A stretch of DNA of 64,000 bases, taken from assembly GCA_963769935.1 (NCBI GenBank), contig CAVYNY010000020.1:192001-256000 (forward strand), in the 5' to 3' direction. Positions 6,062 through 59,360 of the stretch are shown here, piece after piece. The notes under the pieces were generated by a model. That model was not told the DNA's origin. It ran no database searches and saw only the letters and a list, made by a program, of their open reading frames with translations. Source of the stretch: an uncultured delta proteobacterium (GTDB lineage: Bacteria; Desulfobacterota; Desulfobacteria; Desulfobacterales; JAFDCJ01). Both the position numbers and the translations under genes were made by a program. The first letter of the stretch is position 1, and each line of letters begins with the position of its first letter.

Positions 6062-6994
6062 ATGACAGCCTCTGAAGAAGCCATGGATACGGCCGAAGTA
6101 TCGCAACCCGGCAGCTTTCCTAAACGCATGTGGGGCGGTATCTCCATTATTTTCTCCTCCAAAGTGGCGCTGGTCGGTTTTGCGCTGGTCTTTTTTTGGA
6201 TGTTCACGGCGGTTTTTGCACCCTTTCTGACCCGATACACCCCGGTTGAGCAGGACTGGAAAGCACCCAATGAAGGGCCATCCCAAGCGCATATCCTTGG
6301 TACCGATGAGCTGGGACGGGATCTATGGTCCCGGTTGATATACGGTGCCCGGGTCGTCCTGATCGTCCTGCCGATTACGGAAAAATACTGGCTGCCTGGC
6401 GGCACGGCGATCTGGGGGGTTCTGGCAGCCCTTCTGGTGGGAATGGCCTTCGGACTGGTGGCCGGTTTCTATGGCGGGTGGATTGATGAAATCGTGATGC
6501 GTCTTTTAGACGCCATGATGGCGGTGCCCATCATCCTGCTTTATTTAATTATCATGGCCGCCCTGGGGGCATCCGCCTTGAATGTGGTCATCGCCATTAC
6601 CATCGTGGGCACCCCCGGGATTGCCCGTCTGGTGCGCAGTTTGACGCTGGATATCCGCACCCGGGAATACATCCGGGCAGCCGAGACCCGGGGTGAGAAT
6701 CCATGGCACATCATGTTCGTTGAAATCCTGCCCAACGCACGCGGTCCGATTATCGTCGATGCCATGCTGCGCGTTGGTTATGCCATATTCGCCATGGGAA
6801 CCCTGGGTTTTCTCGGTCTGGGGCTGCCGCCGCCGTCCCCCGACTGGGGCAGCATGGTAGCCAAGGGCCGGGAGTTCATCCTGTCGGGCAGCCCCTGGGC
6901 CGCCCTGTGGCCGTCGCTGGCGATTGCCTCACTGGTGGTCGGGCTTAACTTGTTGGCCGATGGGTTGCGGGAAGAAACGATGCGCTATCAGTAA
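6062..6994 (+). CDS. ABC permease, OppC/DppC-like
   Basis: HILGTDELGRD, EYIRAA, LGFLGLG..PPSPDWG. Confidence 0.93.
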   Translation: MTASEEAMDTAEVSQPGSFPKRMWGGISIIFSSKVALVGFALVFFWMFTAVFAPFLTRYTPVEQDWKAPNEGPSQAHILGTDELGRDLWSRLIYGARVVLIVLPITEKYWLPGGTAIWGVLAALLVGMAFGLVAGFYGGWIDEIVMRLLDAMMAVPIILLYLIIMAALGASALNVVIAITIVGTPGIARLVRSLTLDIRTREYIRAAETRGENPWHIMFVEILPNARGPIIVDAMLRVGYAIFAMGTLGFLGLGLPPPSPDWGSMVAKGREFILSGSPWAALWPSLAIASLVVGLNLLADGLREETMRYQ

Positions 6995-12098: not shown

Positions 12099-13548
12099 AA
12101 AGCAGTATTTCATACTTTTCCCGTATCGCCTTTTCTACGTCGGCCGGGATGTAAGCTTTTTCTTCCCGGGCCAGAATTTTTTTCGCAATCTCCCGCGCCC
12201 GTGTGCGGGCATCCTGCGAACCTTTCTCCAGCCATTTTTCCCGGCTGTCCTGATCGGCAACTCCAATGCCGTTAAAATATTCCCGGCGCATATGCGTCAA
12301 CGTGTGCGGTGAAGTAATAAATGACCCGCCGGGGCCGACCTGGTTAATGGCTTCCAATGCCAGGTGTTCATCATCCACCTGGATGCCTTGCAGGACTTGG
12401 CAGCACATGCCGATAATTTCGTCATCGATAACAAACTGCTCGTAGGCGACGGCCAGCATGGACTCCAGCATGCCGGCGGCATGGTGCACAAAGTTGGAGC
12501 CACCCATGGCCGCCAGTACGGTTGTCAGCGCTTTTTCCCAGGCCGCCTGCGCGTCCGGGATTTTAGCATCGGTCAGTCCGGACGAATTATAATTCGGCAC
12601 CTTTATAAAGTGCGCCAATTGGTGGATGGCGGCATTCATCATCCCGCACTCAACCGCTCCGCCCAGGTAGCCCAGGCTGCGCAGATTGGCCCGGCCGGGA
12701 ATACCACCGTACAGGACAGGTGCTCCGGGATTGGTCAGCTGGCAAATTGTAATCCCCGCCAGCTGTTCGGCGTGAAGCTGCGCCAAAGTTCCGGCCATCG
12801 TCACCGGTGAGGTGGATCCGGCCATGGGGGCGGCCGAAAGCGCCACCGGTATTCGATTGCGCACCGCTTCCTGCATGATCAAGGTCGACTGCGTGCACAG
12901 CTTCAGGGGGCTGATCGCAAAAGAAGCGATTACCGAAATAAAAGGTTTTTCCACCAGCGCCTGCTGATTTCCGGCGATCATAGACGCCAACTCCAGGACC
13001 TTGTGAAATCCTTCTTCGTTGCCGACGCCGGCCATGACATGCTTGGCGGTGGCCTTCAGGCAGGCGAAAAATGAATTGACGTCATAGGCCGCCACGGGAA
13101 TATCGGTGGGAATGCAGGGTCGCAGGAAAAAATGGATGTTGTCCAGAGCGTCCACCAGCCGCCCCAGCCGGTACAGGTCGCTCAAAGTAGTTGGGCGGGC
13201 CTGCCCGTCTTCAAGATCCAGAATTTTAACCGCCGCCCCACCTGTGCCGAGATAGACACGGTGGCGGGTCAGATCCAGATCATTTTTTCCATCACGGCTG
13301 TACAGAATCACCTGTTCCGGAGCCAGCGCGGCCTGGGACATGACCAGCTCAGGCTTGAGAAAAATTCTTGACCGTTCTCTATCTACCGATATGCCGCGGT
13401 TTTGGAGCATGTCGATAGCGGCTTCAAGGCCGGTCTCGTATTTCATCCCGGTGCTTTCCAGGATACTTAACGCAGCCCGATGGATGGCTTCGATATCTTC
13501 AGAAGACAACGGCTTATACAACCCGCCGCTGAGGCCTTTTAATGACAT
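12097..13548 (-). CDS. Trimethylamine methyltransferase (MttB) superfamily, non-pyrrolysine
   Basis: IHRAALSILE, SPL, PMAGSTSPVTMAG, GLTDAKIPDAQ, HAAGMLES, VGPGG; no in-frame amber codon. Confidence 0.92.
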   Translation of the reverse strand: MSLKGLSGGLYKPLSSEDIEAIHRAALSILESTGMKYETGLEAAIDMLQNRGISVDRERSRIFLKPELVMSQAALAPEQVILYSRDGKNDLDLTRHRVYLGTGGAAVKILDLEDGQARPTTLSDLYRLGRLVDALDNIHFFLRPCIPTDIPVAAYDVNSFFACLKATAKHVMAGVGNEEGFHKVLELASMIAGNQQALVEKPFISVIASFAISPLKLCTQSTLIMQEAVRNRIPVALSAAPMAGSTSPVTMAGTLAQLHAEQLAGITICQLTNPGAPVLYGGIPGRANLRSLGYLGGAVECGMMNAAIHQLAHFIKVPNYNSSGLTDAKIPDAQAAWEKALTTVLAAMGGSNFVHHAAGMLESMLAVAYEQFVIDDEIIGMCCQVLQGIQVDDEHLALEAINQVGPGGSFITSPHTLTHMRREYFNGIGVADQDSREKWLEKGSQDARTRAREIAKKILAREEKAYIPADVEKAIREKYEILL

Positions 13549-25174: not shown

Positions 25175-26173
25175 GTGATCCAATGTACCTCTTCCGAGGA
25201 AAGGAGATTGATTGTGAGAAAAAGCCGGATCATAGTGGACGATAACTTACTTGTCTTCGGGTTGGCGGCATGCCATGCGTCAACCACCGCCCCGGTAAAG
25301 ACACGAACCGACAATTCTCCAAGGGTCATTGCCCACCGTGCGGGCGGCGGCCAGTGGCCGCAAAATTCCCGAACCGCCGTGCTCAACTGCATAGCAAAGG
25401 CTCAAGACCCCACCCTTCAAAATCGTTATGACGGCATGGAGATGGATATTGTTCTGACCAAGGACGGTATTCCGGTTTTATCCCATGACCCATGGGTTCA
25501 CACCGCCCTGTGCACCACGGCATCCGGCGAACCGATCCGCGACCGCGTCTTGATCCGTGAAAAAACCCTGGCCCAACTTCAATCCCAATACATTTGTGGA
25601 GGAGTTCGGGAGCCTGACTTTCCACAGGTCCATCCGAAAGCCGAGCCGATCATGACGTTGGATGAAGTTCTGCAGGCATTGAAAAAGGCGCCGAAAATGA
25701 TGCTGTATCTGGACGTCAAAATCGACGGTGACCTGACCGCAAGTGCCGAAGATTACGCCAAAGCAATATCCGCGCTCTGGGAGGCCGCTGGATTGTCAAA
25801 TCGTCTTTATGTTGAGGGGCCTTCGCCGGACAGCCTGGCGGCCTATCGCGCGGCGTTCACGACGAACTTTGTGCCCGTGTTGTCCTATCCGGCTTTCAGC
25901 GCAACGGAAAATTTCACCTGGACGGCGCTCAAGGCACGCTGGCTCACCAAACTAAAGCTGCGCAGCCCTCTGGCGGCGGCTCGCAAAGCGCAGGCCGGAG
26001 CAGTGGCCGCTCCAACGCAGGTGGTTACCCGGCACGCGGTCGGGGAAGCCCGGGACAACGGCGTTGAAGTGGTGTTGTTTACTCCAAACACCCGGGATGA
26101 TCTTGAAAGGTATTGCCAATGGCCCGTGGATGTCTTGATTACCGATTATCCGGACCTGGGGCACTGCCCATAA
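25175..26173 (+). CDS. Glycerophosphodiester phosphodiesterase family protein (start uncertain)
   Basis: IAHRAG, QNS, EMDIVLTKDG..VLSHD, ITDYPD. Confidence 0.85.
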   Translation: MIQCTSSEERRLIVRKSRIIVDDNLLVFGLAACHASTTAPVKTRTDNSPRVIAHRAGGGQWPQNSRTAVLNCIAKAQDPTLQNRYDGMEMDIVLTKDGIPVLSHDPWVHTALCTTASGEPIRDRVLIREKTLAQLQSQYICGGVREPDFPQVHPKAEPIMTLDEVLQALKKAPKMMLYLDVKIDGDLTASAEDYAKAISALWEAAGLSNRLYVEGPSPDSLAAYRAAFTTNFVPVLSYPAFSATENFTWTALKARWLTKLKLRSPLAAARKAQAGAVAAPTQVVTRHAVGEARDNGVEVVLFTPNTRDDLERYCQWPVDVLITDYPDLGHCP

Positions 26174-26189
26174 CTGCCGGATTCATAGC

Positions 26190-26395
26190 GAAATCTGCCT
26201 GATGCTTCACGATGATCTCTGCTTCGTCGGTAGTGAATCCTGTGCCTGAGAAAGCCGAGAGCGGTTGAAATCGCACCCCCTCCTCTGATAAACCCGTCAT
26301 CAAAAAAGGAAGGCAACAGAGCCCATCCGAATTACTAACATCGAAAGGGCTAATACGAGAATAAGTAACACGACAGAAACCATAGCGGCCACCAT
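26190..26395 (-). pseudogene. N-terminal fragment of a TrkA-C-associated membrane protein
   Basis: Frameshifted reading ...VIRMGSVA / MTGLSEEGVRFQPLSAFSGTGFTTDEAEIIVKH; follows an attC site. Confidence 0.55.
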
Positions 26396-26418
26396 CTTGA
26401 GGAGGATGCCTCAGCGAG

Positions 26419-26520
26419 GTTCGACTGAGCTAACCTGCCGGCCACCATACCTTCGCGCCTGCGCTGGTCTTTACGGAAAACCGCATACTTTTTCCGTTCA
26501 AGTGCAGCGGCAGGTTGGCT
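26419..26520 (-). other. Integron attC site (3' end eroded)
   Basis: AGCCAAC ctgccgctgcacttgaacgg ... ccggcaggttagctca; homologous to the attC at 28109. Confidence 0.7.
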
Positions 26521-26535
26521 GGTATCATGCTACTG

Positions 26536-26937
26536 CTACTTACCGAACGAATTCAATGACATTGCCACTGAGGAAAACTCGCGCAGCAGCTGCTTATCAA
26601 CAGTTACTAAAGGAACCTTCAGGTCCTTTGCCGTAACGATAAATTCACAATCATAAGCAGAGCATTTGCTTTTTGAGGTAAGCCTCAAAACTTCATATGA
26701 TGGAACCTCATACTCTCGATCCCTTAGTAATTTCAAAGCACTATTCATTATTTGCTGAGCTTGCTCCAACTTTATGATTTTTTTTCGCATATAAAAGGCA
26801 AGAACATTGCGAAATTCGCTACGCCATAAAATGGGTGCCGCCCACTCATTGTCCTTTTGCAGGGTTCGTTCGGCTAAAACGGATTGCTCGCTCGATAGGA
26901 AGAGATAGCCGATAACATTTGTATCAACCACAATCAT
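26536..26937 (-). CDS. vapC: VapC / PIN-domain toxin
   Basis: MIVVDTNV, SAYDCEF, LVTVDKQL. Confidence 0.92.
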   Translation of the reverse strand: MIVVDTNVIGYLFLSSEQSVLAERTLQKDNEWAAPILWRSEFRNVLAFYMRKKIIKLEQAQQIMNSALKLLRDREYEVPSYEVLRLTSKSKCSAYDCEFIVTAKDLKVPLVTVDKQLLREFSSVAMSLNSFGK

Positions 26938-27176
26938 AGCCGGCCTTCTGCTTTTGCCCGGTTGAATTCCTTATCACTGATCAGATGTCCGGCTGTCAAT
27001 TGACGGAGCTGACGAGCATTCTCAAGCACCTCCTCGAGATCGATCCGGCGGCTGACAACATTATTTTCAATGCACATGATAATCTCGCTATTGATGGAAC
27101 GCCGATTTATTTGTGCGACTGACTTAAGCCGCTCGTAAAGCTCATCAGGTATATTCTTGACTGTAACAGTTGCCAT
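26934..27176 (-). CDS. Arc/FitA-like ribbon-helix-helix antitoxin
   Basis: MATVTVKNIPDELYERLK..A..NRRSINSEII; 4-nt overlap with the toxin; upstream TTGACA-17-CATATT with a tggtttcatatt direct repeat. Confidence 0.88.
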   Translation of the reverse strand: MATVTVKNIPDELYERLKSVAQINRRSINSEIIMCIENNVVSRRIDLEEVLENARQLRQLTAGHLISDKEFNRAKAEGRL

Positions 27177-27260
27177 ATTAGCGCCCCCAAATGATTTCAA
27201 TATGAAACCAATATGAAACCAAATGGAGTTGTTGTCAAGCCCAAAACAGACATTTATGTT

Positions 27261-27358
27261 TGCCAACCTCCACAAATAAGCTGCGTGTCAAAAGCGTTTC
27301 GAACTCGCACCGCCCTTACGGTAAGCCGCCTTCACCGCACTTGAACAGATTGGTTTTA
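27261..27358 (-). other. Degenerate integron attC site
   Basis: ...gcagcttatttgtggag GTTGGCA core; GTTGGC matches the AGCCAAC inverse core closing the vapBC cassette; left end degenerate. Confidence 0.55.
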
Positions 27359-27755
27359 TTCCAACATTGAAAACCTGGTCCTGTGGGCCAGGTCAGAGGA
27401 GATTGGCTTGTGCCGTAAACAGATGCCGTGGAATGATGAAACAGCATTCACGCCGCGCAGCGGGAGGGATACCACCCCAAAGAGCGCATCACCTTGATCA
27501 TGGGTCCGACAGCTCAGCTGCCGTTCGTTTTAATTTTGAAGAGGTCCTTGATTCTGGTTGCCACAATGGATATTTTATTAGTTGTTGATGGAGCTTGTAT
27601 CTGACAGCAATCTATCATTTGCGGGCTTCGCAAAAGCGAATATTTGGCCGATTATTTTTAAATAACTTGTTCCAGCCAATGCGCGCAGTTCGCTTTTGTT
27701 TGTCTGAGTTGTCGCTGCGCGTCGTTGAGTTAAATACTGCCAGGAGGTGAATGAC

Positions 27756-27920
27756 ATGGATATGGAAGTTAGGGAAGAAGAAAAAGAGGTTGTTTGCCAT
27801 GCGCTTAACATATATTTAAAAGATCTGAGGGGGGAAATCACTAAGACCGAAAAACATGACATGAAAGTCGACCTGCATCGCGAGGAAGACCTCATTAAGA
27901 AATTCATCGCGCGTTGTTGA
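27756..27920 (+). CDS. Small hypothetical protein, 54 aa (below the ORF-track cutoff)
   Basis: Strong RBS aggaggtga; MDMEVREEEKEVVCHALNIYLKDLRGEITKTEKHDMKVDLHREEDLIKKFIARC*. Confidence 0.65.
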   Translation: MDMEVREEEKEVVCHALNIYLKDLRGEITKTEKHDMKVDLHREEDLIKKFIARC

Positions 27921-28108
27921 TGGTTTATCGCGTTCCATGCGGATTTTATATCCGGTGGCGTGATTTTTCCTGTGACAATTTTTTGCAGAGCGAGCCCGAA
28001 AGTTTATGCGGGGGGGGCGGGGTTGACTTTCTAACTTCGGCCTCAGAAGGATAAGTACGATCCAAGGTGAGTAATTTACTCCGTTAAACCTTTTCCAAAT
28101 CAACTTTT

Positions 28109-28214
28109 GCCGAACGTTTTGAGCTAACCTGCCGGCCACCTTACCTTCAAACCTGAACAGGTCTTTACGCAAAATCGCATATTTTGCCGGTCAGGTTAAG
28201 CGATTGGGTTAAGC
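28109..28214 (-). other. Integron attC site
   Basis: GCTTAAC ccaatcgcttaacctgaccggc ... gccggcaggttagctcaaaac GTTCGGC; starts 4 nt after a stop codon. Confidence 0.88.
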
Positions 28215-28218
28215 GTCA

Positions 28219-28659
28219 TCAACGCCTCCAAACTGGCGACCAATCGCGAGCCATCTCGCTACGGCACGCGTGAGCTATGGCAAGGGAGCGCGTGTTGTCC
28301 GATTCGGCTGAGCCGGACCGGAGTCCGTTGCCGAATGCCACCATGGCGTCTGTGACGTCTTGGTTTTCGACCATGCCCATGACGCCCCAGTAGAGGGACC
28401 AAAACCGATCGACTCTGCGGACAGGCGGAGCCGGTGCAACAGCCGGCACAGCTGAATCTCTGCCGTAGATGGCGATGCCGGCTGCAACTTCAACCGCCTC
28501 TTCGCACCACCTCAGCTTTCGCTCAAGAAACGGCCGCGCGGCTTCCACTGCTTGATTCCGAGTGAACTGATATGTACCGGCAAGCAGGCCGACGAGCGTA
28601 AGGGCTACGCCGGAAATCTTCAGCCAATGTTCCAGGGACTTCGGTGCTTCTGCGGGCAT
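28219..28659 (-). CDS. Hypothetical cassette protein with N-terminal TM helix
   Basis: RBS gagga; ORF ends directly before attC. Confidence 0.7.
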   Translation of the reverse strand: MPAEAPKSLEHWLKISGVALTLVGLLAGTYQFTRNQAVEAARPFLERKLRWCEEAVEVAAGIAIYGRDSAVPAVAPAPPVRRVDRFWSLYWGVMGMVENQDVTDAMVAFGNGLRSGSAESDNTRSLAIAHACRSEMARDWSPVWRR

Positions 28660-28785
28660 GATGCTGTCCTCGCTGATTAACTGGCATTTTTTAATCACAA
28701 ATCAAGACACGACCCCTTGTTTCTTTTTCAGCTTGGTACTATTTTCCAAATGCGCCCGGCCTTGGCAGTAACCTGGACTGAGAGG

Positions 28786-29061
28786 TCATGATTCTATTTC
28801 GTTAAATTCCGCCTCAATGCGGTTCAATTCTTTTATTTCCTGTAAGATTTTGCTTTCATCTATCTCATTTAGTGGTTTTTTTAAATCCAACAGCGAATTG
28901 GCTTACATCGAGCTAAAACTAAATTTTTTCGTAAGTATTTTTACAGCGCTATCTCTGTTCCTTAAAATCGCATTTATTTTATCAGCGTTTTTCCGTGCTT
29001 TTAATAAACCAGCCATAATATGCTGGCGGGCATAATTTATTGAAAGATCTTTTCGTGCCAT
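28786..29061 (-). pseudogene. Stand-alone GyrA/ParC coiled-coil/C-gate-like fragment with internal TAA
   Basis: ARQHIMAGLLKARKNADKINAILRN...LTKKFSFSSM*ANSLLDL...KILQEIKEL resembles GyrA RxHILEGL..A..N.D.VI..IR...F.LS..QA.AILDM. Confidence 0.55.
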
Positions 29062-29078
29062 AGATTTATCTGAGCAAA

Positions 29079-29212
29079 TCATAACGCAGCGCTTCACTCA
29101 GCGGGCGGTGATATACAACAGACTTTGAAAAATGTGACAAAGCTCGCGAATCACACAAATAGATGGAAAACCGCCAGCAGAGCCCGGTCGGCTGTGAAAG
29201 CGCTTGTTGGGC
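29079..29212 (-). other. Integron attC site
   Basis: GCCCAAC aagcgctttcacagccgac ... gcccgctgagtgaagcgctgc GTTATGA. Confidence 0.88.
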
Positions 29213-29277
29213 GATTATCCTCTTCATTCGCCCACCCGGAAAATGCTGATCCGCTAGACACCAGTCTTTTGTAAAGA

Positions 29278-29667
29278 TTAGGCGGAACTCGTGAGTGCCT
29301 CTGCCAGAGCCTCGGGCTCAGCTATACTCACCATGAGTTGTCGCAAGCGGACCGGAAATCCCATCACATAGCCACGCTGGACTGGTGCCAGATTGATAGT
29401 CAGGATTCCCCGTCCTGATCCATTCACCAGCCATCGACCTGCGAACCCATGCACCCCACGGCTCAATGGCTTTCCATGCGTTTTCGCAGCTAAGACAACA
29501 GCTGTTCTCCGAAAACGAGATCGAAACGCCCAGCCCATTTGCACTCGCACTTCCTCACCATTTACTTCCACGTAGGAACTCGAAGGAGGCAAAAACAAAG
29601 CGCTCGAAAGCATCCCATACCATGCATCGAACTGAATGGGAAATCGTTGTAGGCCCATGCATTCCAT
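29278..29667 (-). CDS. Hypothetical cassette protein
   Basis: ORF between two attC sites; RBS ggag; VRVQMGWAF...SRGVHG..GRWLVNGS. Confidence 0.7.
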   Translation of the reverse strand: MECMGLQRFPIQFDAWYGMLSSALFLPPSSSYVEVNGEEVRVQMGWAFRSRFRRTAVVLAAKTHGKPLSRGVHGFAGRWLVNGSGRGILTINLAPVQRGYVMGFPVRLRQLMVSIAEPEALAEALTSSA

Positions 29668-29728
29668 TGCTCCGCCAAATCGCTGCGGATGATCATCCGC
29701 AGCGAGTGTCGAGGGCGCGCAGCGTCGT

Positions 29729-29786
29729 CGACAACGACGCAAATAAGGCGTGAGTTTACGAATCGCCTGAATTTGCTATGTTAGGT
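29729..29786 (-). other. Integron attC site (short, 58 bp)
   Basis: ACCTAAC atagcaaattcaggcgattcgtaaactcacgccttatttgcgtc GTTGTCG. Confidence 0.8.
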
Positions 29787-29834
29787 TATTAAATTCGAAC
29801 GATATCGATATATCAATACCCGTCCCTAATATTC

Positions 29835-29892
29835 CCCTAACGCCGGCTTCAGCCATGAGCGAAGTGAGTCGGACTGAAAAACAAGGTTATGA
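29835..29892 (-). other. Integron attC site (short, 58 bp)
   Basis: TCATAAC cttgtttttcagtccgactcacttcgctcatggctgaagccggc GTTAGGG. Confidence 0.8.
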
Positions 29893-29970
29893 TATTTTAG
29901 CCTCTGGTTTATAAAGTCCAAGTGCCATAATAATAACTTAAGCCCTCTGATCCTTATTTGGTGGCCGTTT

Positions 29971-30000
29971 GCGTCATTCCGGCGAAGGCCGGAATCCAGT
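29971..30000. repeat. REP-like palindrome GTCATTCCGGCGAAGGCCGGAATCCAG
   Basis: Hairpin ttccggc-gaag-gccggaa; complementary half cgccggaatgacgc at ~32068-32082. Confidence 0.65.
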
Positions 30001-30161
30001 CTGATCAATCTTCTCCGGCCTCCAGAGTTCTGCGAGAGATAGTTCCGGTTAAAAATATTTTTCTTAAGTTAACAGCATTAGGACCAAGGTAACGTATTGA
30101 TTTTCTATCTATTGATGTAAAATATTCGCCTGTTTTCTGGCTTAGAGCCCTCTTTTTAGGC

Positions 30162-30632
30162 TCAAAATGATCCCTCTAAGCTCATATTCGAATCCAGATA
30201 ATTCTCTGGCCCATTTTGCCAGTAAATTGTATTATCCTCCGGCTGCTGCCGTAGCGCTCTGTCTGAAATAATCATGCATCGAATTAGATGATCATCTGGG
30301 GCCACAGCGGTCGCATGATACCGGTCCCGCCAGAAAGCGCCTTTTCTGCCTTTGCGGCTATTGAATTCCTGGCCCGTTTTTCCCGCGATCAATTGAATCG
30401 ATTTCGGAATCGTTTCATTCCTGTTTCCGGTATCATAGACAAGAAGGTGAACATGATTTGACGTGACGGTAAAATTCAGAACGCAGAGCCCGAATCGCTT
30501 TTTGGCCTCAAACAGCCATTACATCCAGCGCTGTTTATCCTTTGCAAACTTTAGAAGAAATTCGCGCTTATGACAGCGGTGGGTCAGGTGCCAGGCATAT
30601 CCGGATATAAAGTGTCGATTCGCTCGGGCCAT
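30162..30632 (-). pseudogene. REP-associated tyrosine (Y1/HUH) transposase remnant
   Basis: MARANRHFISGYAWHLTHRCHKREFLL...*...TSNHVHLL...GAFWRDRY; internal stop and internal deletion. Confidence 0.8.
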
Positions 30633-30649
30633 TTTAATTCCAGTATCCC

Positions 30650-30793
30650 TCAAAAGCTATTTTGTTGTTCCCTAGACACTGACTTTTCCTCACATTTTGC
30701 AATCGCAGTAACGTCTTTCACTTTTTCATCTGCTAATCTTATCTTCTGTTCCTCAGATCTTCCTGGATAAAGTTTCACAATGACATGAGGCAT
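30650..30793 (-). pseudogene. 4-oxalocrotonate tautomerase-family gene, truncated
   Basis: MPHVIVKLYPGRSEEQKIRLA...KSVS; N-terminal catalytic Pro; first ORF after attC; interrupted at the RAYT remnant. Confidence 0.75.
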
Positions 30794-30817
30794 AATTGTT
30801 CTCCAATTTCATGGGGA

Positions 30818-30947
30818 GCATAACGCCAAGCTTGAGCAGCGCCGAAAATTAGGCGCCCATATTGTTAAACTGACAGAATGAAAAATAAACCAACTACTTA
30901 CGAAAATCGCACGGAATAAGGCGTCGGACTCAAAGCTTTTGTTGGGT
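30818..30947 (-). other. Integron attC site
   Basis: ACCCAAC aaaagctttgagtccgacgcc ... cggcgctgctcaagcttggc GTTATGC. Confidence 0.88.
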
Positions 30948-30960
30948 AAAAATTTTTATC

Positions 30961-30999
30961 TTGACAGTTATGACAACCAGTTGTACATTATTCTGTACA
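30961..30999 (+). promoter_or_regulatory. Sigma70 promoter and YefM-YoeB operator
   Basis: TTGACA-17 bp-TACATT, overlapped by two TGTACA hexamers 12 bp apart, the known yefM-yoeB operator arrangement. Confidence 0.8.
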
Positions 31000-31018
31000 G
31001 TTCACATGGAGGTGTCAA

Positions 31019-31270
31019 ATGAAAGCCATTACATATACCGCCGCACGACAAAATCTTGCAAAAACGATGGAGAACGTGTGCAAAGACCACGCGCCTGTTA
31101 TCGTCACACGTAAAACAACCGATTCGGTAGTCATAATGTCACTTGAAGACTATGAAGCCTTGGAAGAAACTGCCTACCTTTTACGTTCCCCCAAAAACAC
31201 AAGGCGCCTGGTTGAATCCATCGCTCAACTCGAAGCGGGCCGGGGGTCAGAAAGAGAACTTTTAGATTGA
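31019..31270 (+). CDS. yefM: YefM/Phd antitoxin
   Basis: YTAARQNLA, VIVTRK, MSLEDY..LEETAYLLRSP. Confidence 0.95.
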   Translation: MKAITYTAARQNLAKTMENVCKDHAPVIVTRKTTDSVVIMSLEDYEALEETAYLLRSPKNTRRLVESIAQLEAGRGSERELLD

Positions 31271-31521
31271 AGCTCATTTTTTCAGATCATGCGTGGGACG
31301 ATTACCTTTATTGGCAAAAAACTGATAAAAAAATCCTCCGGCGAATAAACACCTTAATTAAAGAAATTAAACGAAATCCCTTCGAAGGAATCGGTAAGCC
31401 TGAACCGCTAAAACATGCTTTGTCAGGATATTGGTCCCGTCGAATAAACGATGAACACAGAATCGTTTACAAAGCTTCTGCCGATTCTATTCTAATAGCA
31501 CAACTTCGATACCACTATTGA
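31267..31521 (+). CDS. yoeB: YoeB/Txe toxin
   Basis: AWDDYLYWQ, GIGKPEPLK, WSRRINDEHR, RYHY end. Confidence 0.95.
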   Translation: MKLIFSDHAWDDYLYWQKTDKKILRRINTLIKEIKRNPFEGIGKPEPLKHALSGYWSRRINDEHRIVYKASADSILIAQLRYHY

Positions 31522-31545
31522 TTGTGCCCACCCTCTGCGATCGAT

Positions 31546-31592
31546 ACCCAAGGGCGCCTTCACCAGTTTATCTGGTGAAGGCGTGGTTAGAA
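31546..31592 (-). other. Possible degenerate attC site
   Basis: TTCTAAC cacgccttcaccag-ataaa-ctggtgaaggcgcc CTTGGGT; TTGGGT matches the ACCCAAC of the yefM-yoeB cassette; shorter than a normal attC. Confidence 0.4.
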
Positions 31593-31804
31593 TTTTGGTC
31601 AATAAACTCAAACAGGTTATCGCTATAAATAAAACGAGCTGTGAAGAATGAAGACCTACCCCCTTTTGCCAGGCTTTAGCCAGATGATTACTTAAATCGC
31701 CATTTTTAAGTCCAAAAACATCGCTCTAAGACCAAAAAACGGTCTTATTTTTTACCTAAACCCGCATCAAATAAGCATCCAGTTTGGTCCGACCCCGCCC
31801 CGCA

Positions 31805-31888
31805 TCACACTGCAAATTCTCTCTTATGGCACCGATGGGTTATATGCCAGACATAACCGGGTATGTAATGTCTTTTAGCACGAGCCAT
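31805..31888 (-). pseudogene. Second RAYT transposase N-terminal fragment
   Basis: MARAKRHYIPGYVWHITHRCHKREF, paralogous to the 30632 remnant. Confidence 0.7.
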
Positions 31889-32189
31889 TTTCCGTCAATT
31901 TTCTTAATAGGTCAGTTTTTGAGGAAAATCGGTCGATTAAGACCGGTTCAAAGTCTTTTTTAAGGAATTCTATCAGCAATGTAAAAAACTTAGCGTGGCC
32001 CGTCCCCAGAGAATCCGCTATATCAAAAAATATTCGCTGTCCAATCGCTCCCACGACTCAGACTGTGCCGCCGGAATGACGCGGGGGGCTTAGAGGGCAT
32101 ATGTTACCGGCACCGGCTCCATACCATCCTTATGAATTTAAAAAAGAGACAATATTGTCGAAAACGGTACAAATATGAAGGCGATTTTC

Positions 32190-32618
32190 TCAGTCTTCAG
32201 GAGTTTGATGCAATTGACCGGCCTGATGGAGTTCAATTTTAATATATTTTGAGAATAGCTCGAAGTCTTTGTCTGTCGTGTATATTGAAAACCCGTTCCT
32301 TGCAGCCACAGCGCAAATTAGGAAATCAGTATTTGATACCTGTATTCCTTTTGATCGGCATCGATTGAAATACTTTGCAGCCGTAACATAGTCTTCGGTG
32401 AAAATTTGTAGATCGGGAAAGCTTTCAAGATGTTTCTGGAGCTTTTTAAACTGAGATTCACTGCGGATACCCGATAAAATCTCCTGACGTATGGGGCCAA
32501 TCATTTGGACACGGTGGTCTCTGATTATATGCCGAAGCTCTTGAACGGGAGCAAAGGTGCCCTGTTTGTCGCGCCTTAAAGCCAGAGACCATACGCTCGT
32601 GTCTACAATAACCTTCAT
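32190..32618 (-). CDS. vapC: VapC / PIN-domain toxin
   Basis: VIVDTSVWS, QEILSG, TDFLICA, TTDKDF. Confidence 0.92.
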   Translation of the reverse strand: MKVIVDTSVWSLALRRDKQGTFAPVQELRHIIRDHRVQMIGPIRQEILSGIRSESQFKKLQKHLESFPDLQIFTEDYVTAAKYFNRCRSKGIQVSNTDFLICAVAARNGFSIYTTDKDFELFSKYIKIELHQAGQLHQTPED

Positions 32619-32815
32619 GTGCGGCGTCTCTGTTTTTTATAGTCATATTCCGGGTCGTATTCCACTTTGCCGAACATTGAGAGAATTTTTTCCTGCTCTA
32701 AATGTTGTATATATTCTATTAGTGCCGTTGAGACCGCGTCCTTCTTAGTCTTGTGGCCGCCCAGCCTGACAGCTTTTAAGATAAGTTTGTCATCTATCTG
32801 TAAATTTGTCGCCAT
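32615..32815 (-). CDS. VapB-type antitoxin
   Basis: MATNLQIDDKLI...GGHKTKKDAV; RBS aaggagg; overlaps the toxin start. Confidence 0.88.
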   Translation of the reverse strand: MATNLQIDDKLILKAVRLGGHKTKKDAVSTALIEYIQHLEQEKILSMFGKVEYDPEYDYKKQRRRT

Positions 32816-54636: not shown

Positions 54637-54763
54637 TATCAACCCCAAGCTGAGCGGCCGGGGACGAGCAGACACGGCCTTTCCAAAAGCCTGAATCTTT
54701 GATTAATGATGAATTCCCTTAAGCGCCGCAGGCCCCCCGGTCCGCTTGAGCGCCTGGTTGGCC
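54637..54763 (-). other. Integron attC site
   Basis: GGCCAAC caggcgctcaagcggaccgggg ... ccccggccgctcagcttggg GTTGATA; 38 nt after a stop codon. Confidence 0.85.
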
Positions 54764-54801
54764 ATATGCTGCAAGAACAAGAAACTTTACATAATTCGAC
54801 T

Positions 54802-55611
54802 CTACACATCTATCCCAAAAATTTGAGGTTCTTTCCGAGTACTGCAATTTTCATTTAACCAGTTGGCAATTTTTTTCATCATGCTGTCTTCCCAAACCCT
54901 TGCACCTGTGGGACAGTTTTTAATACAAGCACAACAGCGAATGCATAGCTCGATTTTAGTTGCCACGCTCGCATTAATTGAAATGGCTGCAGTTGGACAT
55001 ACACTGGCGCACGTACCACAAACTGTGCATGTGTCTTCTTTGGTCACTGGTGAAACAGCCATAGATCGCGCTCCGCCTTCATATGGAAATCTGCCGGGAA
55101 TTTCCAAATCCATTTGGGCATCAGGTGATTGTAACGCTGTGACTTTATCTTTAATTTTTGCTCCAAAATCCATTGCCTTTTGAACATCCAGGCTATCCGG
55201 ACGTCCATTTGCGATGGGGACATCCTTTGTTGCAAAAGAGTGCTCCCCGATGAATGCACCACCGGCAACCGGATTAAAGCCTAACTCAATTGCAAGATTT
55301 TTTAATTCTAACAATGCATCTTCAAACTCCCGGTTCCCATATACAACTATGAGAATCGCTAAGGTTTTGCTTGCTTTTATCTGTTTGAATCGATTGATTG
55401 CATCAACTGGCAGACGACCACCGTAAACAGGTGCACCTATAATTACGAGTTCATCTGAAAAGGGCGGAATTGTTTGTTGAGCTCCTTCCGGAAGTGTCAA
55501 ATTAATATGCTCGACATCTTCAACAGTGATACCTTTAGCAATACTTTCCAATACTTTTTGAGTGGTTCCAGTGGGTGAAAAATAGATGAGTTTTACCTTT
55601 TTAACTTCCAT
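54802..55611 (-). CDS. Flavodoxin-fold plus 4Fe-4S protein (EFR1-like), cassette-borne
   Basis: YFSPTGTT, GAPVYGG, VYGNR; CTVCGTCASVCP, CIRCCACIKNCP; AT-rich; RBS aggagg. Confidence 0.88.
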   Translation of the reverse strand: MEVKKVKLIYFSPTGTTQKVLESIAKGITVEDVEHINLTLPEGAQQTIPPFSDELVIIGAPVYGGRLPVDAINRFKQIKASKTLAILIVVYGNREFEDALLELKNLAIELGFNPVAGGAFIGEHSFATKDVPIANGRPDSLDVQKAMDFGAKIKDKVTALQSPDAQMDLEIPGRFPYEGGARSMAVSPVTKEDTCTVCGTCASVCPTAAISINASVATKIELCIRCCACIKNCPTGARVWEDSMMKKIANWLNENCSTRKEPQIFGIDV

Positions 55612-55791
55612 TGTTATCTCCTCCTGCTCACGAGAGCTTCCCATAAATACCTTCATTTGCTCTTCTTTCAATTACGATTATTATAAATTTGGGGGGGATT
55701 TATGGGACGTCCATTGATTTATTGATTTTTGCCTGATACCGGTTGAGAGAATATAAACGATGCATATCCATAAAATTTTATAATATCAGAT

Positions 55792-55935
55792 ATGTCTGAA
55801 CAAAAAAATCGAAAATTATTGGATGAGGTGCGGGATTACTTGCAGCTTCATCATTATTCGATTTATACAGAAAGAACCTGTTACGACTGGATAATAAAAT
55901 TTGTTCAATTTCACCAAATGAAATCAAGAAAGGAT
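55792..55935 (+). pseudogene. intI: Integron integrase N-terminal (SAM-like) fragment
   Basis: KLLDEVRDYLQLHHYSIYTERTCYDWIIKFVQFH matches the IntI N-terminus; divergent from an attC-ended cassette; catalytic domain absent. Confidence 0.78.
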
Positions 55936-56105
55936 TCGAAACGTTTCGACAAATTTCATCCGAGTCTTTTCCCTTTCATTTTTAATAAATTTGTGATTAA
56001 TTTTTCACAACAAAAAAAATATTATCCTTATCATCAGTGTCCCATATTTTTAAACTATGAGCGATCCGCTATCAACCGCAGGGCGGACATCTTGGGGGTG
56101 TTTCC

Positions 56106-58157: not shown

Positions 58158-58365
58158 CCCGTTTGCCAGTTGCCGGTTATCCGGTTATCCTCGCCGTAGC
58201 GGGATTTAGCCTGTCGAAAACATATTGGCTAATTGGCTAACAGGCCAACGGATTAAGGGGCCACGGGCCAACCGGCCAACCATGGCCAACGGGCTAACGG
58301 CCCAACGGCCCAACGGGCTAACGGGCCAACGGGCTAACAGGCCAACGGGCTAACAGGCGCAACCG
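58152..58365. repeat. Inverted-arm element, family B, copy 3
   Basis: ggttagcccgtttgccagttgccggttatccggttatcc ... more than ten ggc(c/t)aac(g/a) units; begins at the hutU stop codon. Confidence 0.82.
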
Positions 58366-58380: not shown

Positions 58381-59286
58381 ATGTCATCGATGAAAAAGAT
58401 ATTGGAATGCGTACCGAATTTCAGCGAGGGGCGCGATCTGGATAAATTGGAAAAAATCCTGGAACCTTTGCGCGGCAAAGACGGTGTCAAGCTGTTGGAC
58501 TTTCAAAACGATGAAGACCACAACCGGGCGGTCGTTACGATCGTCGGCGAGCCCGATCCGTTGAAGGCCGCCGTCATTGAATCCATGGGGGTTGCCATCG
58601 AGGTCATCGATATGCGCCGGCATCAGGGCCAGCACCCCCGGATGGGCGCCATCGATGTGGTCCCGTTTATTCCGGTGAAAAATATCAGCCTGGAGGAGGC
58701 GGTCGATATTTCAAAGGATGTCGCCGCGAAGGCGGCCGCCAAGTACAATCTGCCGATTTATTTATATGAGAAATCCGCCTCCAAGCCCGAACGGCAAAAC
58801 CTGGCTGCCGTCAGAAAGGGTCAGTTCGAGGGCATGGCTGAAAAAATCACCCAGCCGGAGTGGAAGCCTGATTTCGGTCCGGCGCAGATTCACCCTTCGG
58901 CCGGGGTGACTGCCATGGGTGCCAGGATGCCGCTGGTGGCCTATAATGTGAATTTAGCCACCCCTGATTTTGAAATCGCCGACAAGATCGCCAGGCAGGT
59001 CCGGCACCTTAGCGGCGGTCTGCGATACTGCAAGGCGATCGGCATTGAATTAAAGGACCGGGGCCTGGTCCAGGTTTCGATGAATATGACCGACTACAGC
59101 AAAACCGCCTTATACCGCGTGTTTGAGCTGATAAAAATCGAAGCCCGGCGCTACGGCGTCAGTGTCGTGGGCAGCGAAATCATCGGCCTGGTGCCCATGG
59201 AAGCCCTGATGGACACCGCGGCCTATTACCTGGGGCTGGAGGATTTTTCCATGGAGCAGGTGCTGGAGACGAGGATATGGGAGTAG
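58381..59286 (+). CDS. ftcD: Glutamate formiminotransferase
   Basis: ECVPNFSEGR, DHNR, HPRMGAIDVVPF, QVSMN. Confidence 0.95.
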   Translation: MSSMKKILECVPNFSEGRDLDKLEKILEPLRGKDGVKLLDFQNDEDHNRAVVTIVGEPDPLKAAVIESMGVAIEVIDMRRHQGQHPRMGAIDVVPFIPVKNISLEEAVDISKDVAAKAAAKYNLPIYLYEKSASKPERQNLAAVRKGQFEGMAEKITQPEWKPDFGPAQIHPSAGVTAMGARMPLVAYNVNLATPDFEIADKIARQVRHLSGGLRYCKAIGIELKDRGLVQVSMNMTDYSKTALYRVFELIKIEARRYGVSVVGSEIIGLVPMEALMDTAAYYLGLEDFSMEQVLETRIWE

Positions 59287-59290
59287 GGCT

Positions 59291-59360
59291 GGATGCTGGA
59301 TACTGGATGCTGGATACTGGATGCTGGATGTTGGATGCTGGAAGCTTGATACCGGCTGCT
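59291..59360 (+). repeat. Heptamer tandem array (GGATGCT)x10, left arm
   Basis: ggatgct ggatact ggatgct ggatact ggatgct ggatgtt ggatgct ggaagct tgatacc ggctgct. Confidence 0.9.

Follow-up and report, generated by a model that had tools for sequence, protein, structure and literature searches.

In the parts of PMC4889954 on which we draw, clusters of attC sites that have no integron-integrase (CALINs) are defined and described as frequent, 83% of them are reported to have fewer than six sites, and the question of how CALINs arise in genomes that lack intI is regarded as open. For sedentary chromosomal integrons, the excerpted texts report that toxin-antitoxin (TA) cassettes with promoters of their own guard arrays (PMC13108822) and that about 18% of tested Vibrio cassettes are anti-phage (bioRxiv 10.1101/2024.07.02.601686). 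Here we describe a group of attC-like sites in a 64,000-nucleotide stretch of DNA from an uncultured delta proteobacterium. We call this stretch the window; it corresponds to C20:192001-256000 of the source assembly, G000 (C-numbers denote contigs of G000, other G-numbers the genomes of relatives). Based on our analysis, the region between 26418 and 31592 is very probably a decaying CALIN, likely assembled earlier by an integron integrase. It comes in two pieces, a six-site array H-G-F-E-D-C running from 31592 to 28109, and a B-A TA cassette. The original prediction, made from the sequence alone, had named the region a CALIN, and this identity is supported because the attC sites are co-oriented, no intI lies nearby, and the cassette boundaries are confirmed in other species.

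Cassette boundaries and attC sites

The strongest evidence for the putative cassettes is their recurrence in other species of the genus. Three of them are found there between different attC sites, starting at the predicted crossover. The yefM-yoeB unit is present in G009, G020 and G015 (85-89% identity), right after the GTTGGG of differing attC sites, and in G015 the identity starts exactly at 31551. The tautomerase cassette is full-length in G018 and G010, where the identity ends at 30674; in G018 it has the same start, CGTTATGC. The fitA-PIN unit of G018 (87%) starts with TTGGC after an attC of 40.4 bits and ends in a left arm that is shared with site A. It had further been claimed that opening and closing cores match in four cassettes, and indeed they do, at 6/7 bases each; the other three pairs are worse (29729 to 29079, 4/7; 29079 to 28109, 5/7; 28109 to 27261, 3/7).

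A search of the region against Rfam gave no family match, and therefore a test set independent of G000 was built. Our covariance model, R1, comes from 32 attC sites (7 from plasmid integrons, 25 from relatives, none from G000), which lie on the cassette side of an intact IntI and were picked with a simple grammar. The R and L stems covary in the R1 alignment (85.5% of cells paired, against 0/500 shuffles). Run over the window with filters off, R1 gives 12 matches at E<=10. A check by covariance model had been proposed for the eight named sites; with R1, seven of the eight are among the top 8 matches, all in one orientation, the bottom strand being on the plus strand. R1 is our own model and not that of IntegronFinder; it places 7 matches in 26418-31592 on one strand, with a largest gap of about 1.6 kb. 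Grammar and profile scanners find 5 co-oriented sites in 26.0-32.2 kb, where 300 local shuffles reach <=3. The other member of the top 8, at 54637-54763 (28.6 bits), lies outside the array and is described below. As a side observation, a weak attC-like match with matching cores and the orientation of the array is seen at window positions 6730-6783 (11.4 bits, E 2.6).

The sites are of uneven quality. In the R1 alignment, the cores R''(AAC) and R'(GTT) are present at sites G, F, E, D and C, the spacers are unpaired, and the L boxes pair and have an extrahelical base. R and L stems can be seen in the minimum-energy folds of E, G and D. This architecture is lacking in H (C/TT, no bulge), in A (R' lost) and in B (poor L stem). 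All eight coordinates proposed for minus-strand palindromes mark an attC-like R' end, but the site at 27261 is a remnant and those at 26419 and 31546 are damaged. Site H has no canonical crossover G; intact 48-bp copies of it occur twice on C9 (35.3 and 33.7 bits), and the damaged form is spanned without a gap by contigs from runs X1 and X3. In A, the R' positions are deleted in the R1 alignment and a GTT in the canonical register is absent; the site shares 85% identity with C along 66 nt.

The view that 7-8 functional sites form one array is not supported, since about five sites look canonical, three are damaged, and the stretch 28108-27360 is not a cassette. The latter follows from its mismatching cores, from the opposite strand of the open reading frame (ORF) at 27756, and from a contig of a related organism (X11) which skips B-A, joining the end of the GDPD gene (26169) to 27535-27798 via 262 other letters. 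The ORF was not found in 22 genomes of the genus with the query used. Sites C and A both end directly in chromosomal DNA. The main array really ends at C, and the B-A cassette was likely inserted separately into this stretch of the chromosome. The family of site C has matches in 13 of the 22 genus genomes, most of which cover only the C stretch.

Insertions, decay and cargo

The array has decayed: a bulge and a crossover G were lost at one site and an R' core at another, and there are insertions and point damage. Several cassettes look odd because of insertions of TIRtrons (Y1 transposase elements flanked by terminal inverted repeats, TIRs) and of miniature inverted-repeat transposable elements (MITEs), neither of which the original prediction had considered. 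All features are collected in the table.

Features of the array and its surroundings, in the direction of the minus strand (REP, repetitive extragenic palindromic; RHH, ribbon-helix-helix)
Feature	Positions	Strand	Remarks
5' stub of TIR-flanked Y1 (HUH) transposase element	31808-32007	-	TIR at 32007 through 26 codons
Non-coding leader	31593-31796	-	begins at TIR-like GGGGTCGGACC motif; forms module with attC H; parent element not identified
attC H, 47 bp, decayed copy	31546-31592	-	13.3 bits, E 1.1; extrahelical base lost, crossover C/TT
yefM-yoeB toxin-antitoxin pair	31019-31521	+	PF02604, PF06769, TIGR02116; inverted in cassette 31551-30824
attC G, 130 bp, canonical	30818-30947	-	41.6 bits, E 2.3e-6; 78% copy in G022
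4-oxalocrotonate tautomerase gene, 5' part	30674-30793	-	weak PF01361 / NF002622 matches; cut by insertion
Y1 (HUH) transposase pseudogene, TIRYT/RAYT type	30162-30632	-	PF01797 E 3.8e-7 (over cut-off), NF047646 E 3.5e-5
Miniature element, about 150 bp, REP-like palindrome	29934-30086	.	5 further G000 copies
attC F, 58 bp	29835-29892	-	16.6 bits, E 0.23; R'' against R' of G 6/7
Gene-less interior of 106-bp F-E cassette	29787-29840	-	TIRtron terminal repeat, GGGACGGGTATTGAT type
attC E, 58 bp	29729-29786	-	18.2 bits, E 0.11; R and L stems fold, z -2.6
REP-like palindromic repeat	29678-29735	-	begins at GTT of E
126-129 aa hypothetical protein, predicted PH-like	29278-29667	-	homologs and structure prediction
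attC D, 134 bp	29079-29212	-	21.4 bits, E 0.026
Short ORF, probably frameshifted	28789-29061	-	52 aa, followed in a different frame by about 37 aa
146-aa hypothetical protein	28219-28659	-	long N-terminal helix (hydrophobic start) and predicted four-helix bundle
attC C, 106 bp, real end of main array	28109-28214	-	22.4 bits, E 0.016
Non-cassette DNA with 54-aa ORF (27756-27920, +)	27444-28108	+	cores mismatch, 3/7
High-copy MITE-like repeat	27352-27443	.	118 blast matches in G000; abuts R'' of attC B
attC B, remnant	27261-27359	-	R' intact (GTTGGCA), L stem poor; partial 4.4 bits, E 7.4 in 7.2-kb search
fitA-like RHH antitoxin and PIN (VapC-type) toxin cassette	26536-27176	-	PF22513, PF01850
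attC A, terminal	26418-26520	-	16.5 bits, E 0.25; left arm intact, R' core lost

The tautomerase gene is broken at 30674 by the Y1 pseudogene and the miniature element. The pseudogene has an internal stop (30521-30519) and lacks its 3' part, while its NHVH motif is present. Its family has paired inverted GGG[GA][TA]CGG[AG]CC ends at 6 of the 12 loci examined, the copies in the window being partial; other copies of the miniature element end in GGGTCGGACC-type inverted repeats. The motif in the F-E interior has 28 copies in G000, several of which immediately precede the start codon of a transposase or form pairs of inverted ends. The REP-like repeat at 29678-29735 recurs with 93-94% identity at C11:466750 and at C11:185596, where it again lies at an attC R'; it is also present in G008. 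The D-C interval contains an ORF with a probable frameshift, a repeated element end (28674-28735) and the 146-aa gene; contigs of runs X2 and X5 have no indel at the short ORF. The stub upstream of the leader has 82-91% identity to full-length elements of relatives at their 5' ends; inverted GGGG[AT]CGGGCC repeats enclose these elements. We also considered 31640-31810 as a transposase C-terminus, which blast and tblastx against full-length elements do not support.

The array lies in DNA of reduced GC content, 42-50% against about 55%. It is flanked by a GDPD gene and a gene of the mttB family, and upstream of its head are the TIRtron stub and a vapBC pair. This pair, at 32190-32815 and directly upstream of the head, is intact, and attC was detected on neither side of it. 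No empty-site allele could be recovered at base resolution; next to the mttB-family gene, four relatives have DNA that varies from one to another. As to the neighbourhood, the 3' part of the GDPD gene (window 25574-26171) is duplicated at C10:6111-6713 with 91% identity, near Y1 transposase ends; a PYLIS_3 pyrrolysine insertion element is present at 12477-12576 in the same window as the mttB-family genes; and short tandem repeats lie at 58230-58365 and 59285-59345, between histidine-utilisation-like genes.

Both TA pairs, yefM-yoeB and fitA-PIN, are intact. Promoter-like sites precede them at 30961-30989 and 27238-27210, respectively, in a scan that was near chance overall (15 against 11). The hypothetical ORFs had been proposed as defence candidates, and our analysis gave no support for this proposal. 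PADLOC, run on 6 proteins at E<=1, returned 0 curated defence families (known systems only). Pfam, NCBIfam and PHROGs gave nothing defensive, the only PHROGs matches (E 0.013 and 0.063) being of unknown function, and the ORF at 27756 lies on the opposite strand, outside the cassettes. The anti-phage share in Vibrio is a fair prior, and it is not evidence for this array.

The 126-129 aa protein has 975 homologs across many phyla. Its model (pLDDT 87) gives a structure match (VIA) with Z 8.7 and rmsd 3.8 over 81 aligned residues, in a list mostly of PH, PTB and FERM chains, and the nearest named Atlas cluster is bPH_5; a PH-like fold is therefore predicted. For the 146-aa protein there are 155 homologs and a model with pLDDT 87.6, whose bundle matches are non-specific (best Z 10.1); Pfam over 61 homologs gave no consistent family. 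With Foldseek neither model has a match at E<=0.001, which does not show a new fold. The gene family of the PH-like protein has an attC match within 2.5 kb at 5 of 46 loci and is flanked on both sides at 1. The 146-aa family has an attC directly downstream at 1 of 51 loci searched (51 of 58 were fetched, near-duplicates and one short locus being left out). Elsewhere, these two larger families are seldom flanked by attC. The 52-aa ORF at 29061 has weak matches to topoisomerase helices, which we treat as chance, and no other homolog.

Integrase and possible origins of the array

The statement that no integrase is adjacent stands, and it can be extended, as none is intact in the window or the genome. 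A search of G000 with the IntI model TIGR02249, whose cut-off is 265 bits, reached 164 bits at best, and an intact intI with attI upstream, as in a complete integron, was not found. Four larger intI copies are broken (C13:559.6-560.3k, C16:347.7-348.5k, C17:217.8-218.4k and C20:456.4-456.8k). Three of these lost the middle of the gene by internal deletion and one lost its 5' part, and the remnants show deletions, truncations or frameshifts; the junction on C17 reads G/TT, like the IntI crossover core. The fifth broken copy is the sole trace of intI in the window, a divergent 34-codon stub at 55813-55914, 24 kb off. It belongs to a second integron remnant at 54637-55995, made of the attC at 54637-54763, one gene and the stub; by eye, we take this gene to be flavodoxin/ferredoxin-like. 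IntI over the cut-off is present in 26 of the 61 genomes searched, including an integron of the same genus with 8 attC sites. G000 itself has 63 attC-like sites in 10 clusters plus 17 singles, and two clusters lie beside intI remnants. This count comes from the model on 20 selected regions and the window, plus a profile scan, with a threshold never reached in 2.2 Mb of shuffled DNA. Dispersed attC sites are also found in five relatives.

It seems reasonable to suppose that IntI, from a copy now broken elsewhere in G000 or transiently present, would have joined circular cassettes at the G/TT cores of folded bottom strands. After the loss of IntI, promoter-less cassettes would be neutral and would gather TIRtron and MITE insertions and deletions, whereas both TA cassettes with promoter-like sites were likely kept because their loss is toxic. 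Several points weigh against this account. The bottom strands were expected to fold with extrahelical bases; the R1 alignment has such a base in G, F, E, D and C, and by free energy only 3/8 beat shuffles (H, z -6.1; A, -3.6; E, -2.6), and the other five range from -1.0 to +1.0. The E-values of R1 are rough, and its training sites were chosen by our own grammar. The argument for TA retention, likely as it appears, rests on the literature. Finally, the source assembly (8.0 Mb) consists of 41 contigs and is 96.7% complete, which leaves room for an intact intI outside it.

Alternatively, the array could be the live satellite of a functional integron, with the integrase absent from the assembly and the cassettes still being shuffled. 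In favour of this, relatives commonly have an intact IntI, canonical cores are retained at five sites, and half of CALINs are in IntI-encoding replicons according to the cited portion of PMC4889954. However, five broken copies of intI and no intact one, together with damage in 3/8 sites, make this unlikely in our opinion. No attC-crossover joint is among the joints listed from contigs of eight runs at low depth, which is weak evidence against that explanation; joints with sides of 21-33 nt involve repeats and were disregarded. That the palindromes are just chance hairpins, terminators or REP-type repeats is scarcely credible. It is true that H now forms an almost perfect hairpin shortly downstream of yoeB and could be a terminator, that B barely scores and that REP-like repeats are present. 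The ranking by the model, the shuffle control, the boundaries conserved in other species and the canonical attC of the intact H copies largely refute this possibility.

A different founding event is suggested by modules that combine a terminal repeat with an attC. The H module (a TIR-like motif, about 205 nt and a 48-bp attC) has copies in the window, at two places on C9 and in G008, with 89-93% identity and differing flanks. The second (a terminal repeat, 39 nt and a 129-bp attC) occurs on C10, C13, C17, C38 and, truncated, C11, as well as in G022. In both, the left flanks cease to match at the TIR-like motif and those on the right at the attC crossover. A Y1 element with attC in its end could have founded the array by transposition, dropping a TIR and attC module to which IntI adds cassettes, an origin we consider improbable. 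The broader idea is equally doubtful: TIR-flanked HUH (Y1) transposons would carry attC in their ends and seed arrays, the module replacing the intI-attI platform. In favour of such seeding, two modules recur at dispersed loci with flanks diverging on both sides, and in three arrays (window, C9, C11) the first of the called sites is of the H type. One TIR motif lies <=100 bp from attC in 6/28 cases against 0.19% at random, and 11 of 18 NF047646 Y1 matches in G000 lie <=10 kb from attC, all co-oriented, where about 5% would be expected randomly. Movement of a CALIN by IS200/605 has also been speculated upon in PMC7923331, as excerpted. Yet DDE transposases are equally near in G000 (6/9 <=10 kb from attC), and within <=5 kb of called attC in five relatives the counts are 4/45 for Y1 and 2/25 for DDE/rve, from incomplete attC lists. 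The co-orientation is partly explained by the G-rich strand, favoured by arrays (15/21) and Y1 genes (13/18) alike. No closing TIR is shown, the interior of the H module is unlike full-length elements, and what precedes the TIR in G022 is apparently another attC's left arm, as would fit an insertion into an array.

We rejected a specific targeting of attC by Y1 elements: a flank test gave 5/24 against 0/29 for DDE (Fisher p 0.015; loci not independent), but the five-relative comparison shows no difference. The simplest reading is that the arrays are neutral sinks and that IntI spread cassettes holding TIRtron scraps. Seeding, if true, would account for many dispersed CALINs without intI-attI in this lineage, and modules of TIRtron end and attC, if mobile, would be a testable fifth route to CALINs, which the controls do not favour over neutral sinks. 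Among open-access texts, taken without supplements, no paper linking TIRtrons (TIRYT/RAYT) to attC was found. As a separate observation, reverse-transcriptase elements lie directly after TIRtron-type terminal repeats within arrays of G000 and G008 (L034:10929, L038:10455, L188:3545). These are presumably group II introns, and they may use the TIRtron-type repeat as a target.

Comparison with known systems

The transposable elements found here resemble TIRtrons (TIRYT, TnpA-Y1 subclass 2.1), which in the excerpted texts of PMC3733652 and PMC6006769 are HUH Y1 genes within TIRs starting with GGGG[AT]C, with miniature derivatives. The published consensus is GGGGWSAS, whereas the ends here read GGGG[AT]CGG or GGGACGGG. 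The word 'integron' is absent from the main texts of both papers, while the ends here abut attC.

As far as the portions cited of PMC13108822 and bioRxiv 10.1101/2024.07.02.601686 go, sedentary chromosomal integrons with TA cassettes share with our locus the promoter-like sites of TA pairs and cassettes of unknown function. Unlike them, it has no intI or attI, about 6 cassettes, heterogeneous attC sites of 47-134 bp and no recognisable defence system. The insertions into attG sites and the single attC sites (SALINs) covered by the part of bioRxiv 10.1101/2022.09.11.507474 cited here are a known IntI-only route to dispersed attC, and C and A do end in chromosomal DNA; this route already offers a possible IntI-only origin for the dispersed sites here.

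The closest likeness is to the CALIN, in the excerpted definition of PMC4889954 at least 2 co-oriented attC sites within 4 kb with no intI near and few cassettes, of unknown function. The locus is of the same kind, in a genome rich in such clusters and with an array that is heavily interrupted. It would represent a clear case of decay after loss of the integrase, the TA cassettes being kept and the others broken. In itself it is an ordinary CALIN of a known kind, one of about ten such clusters in G000.

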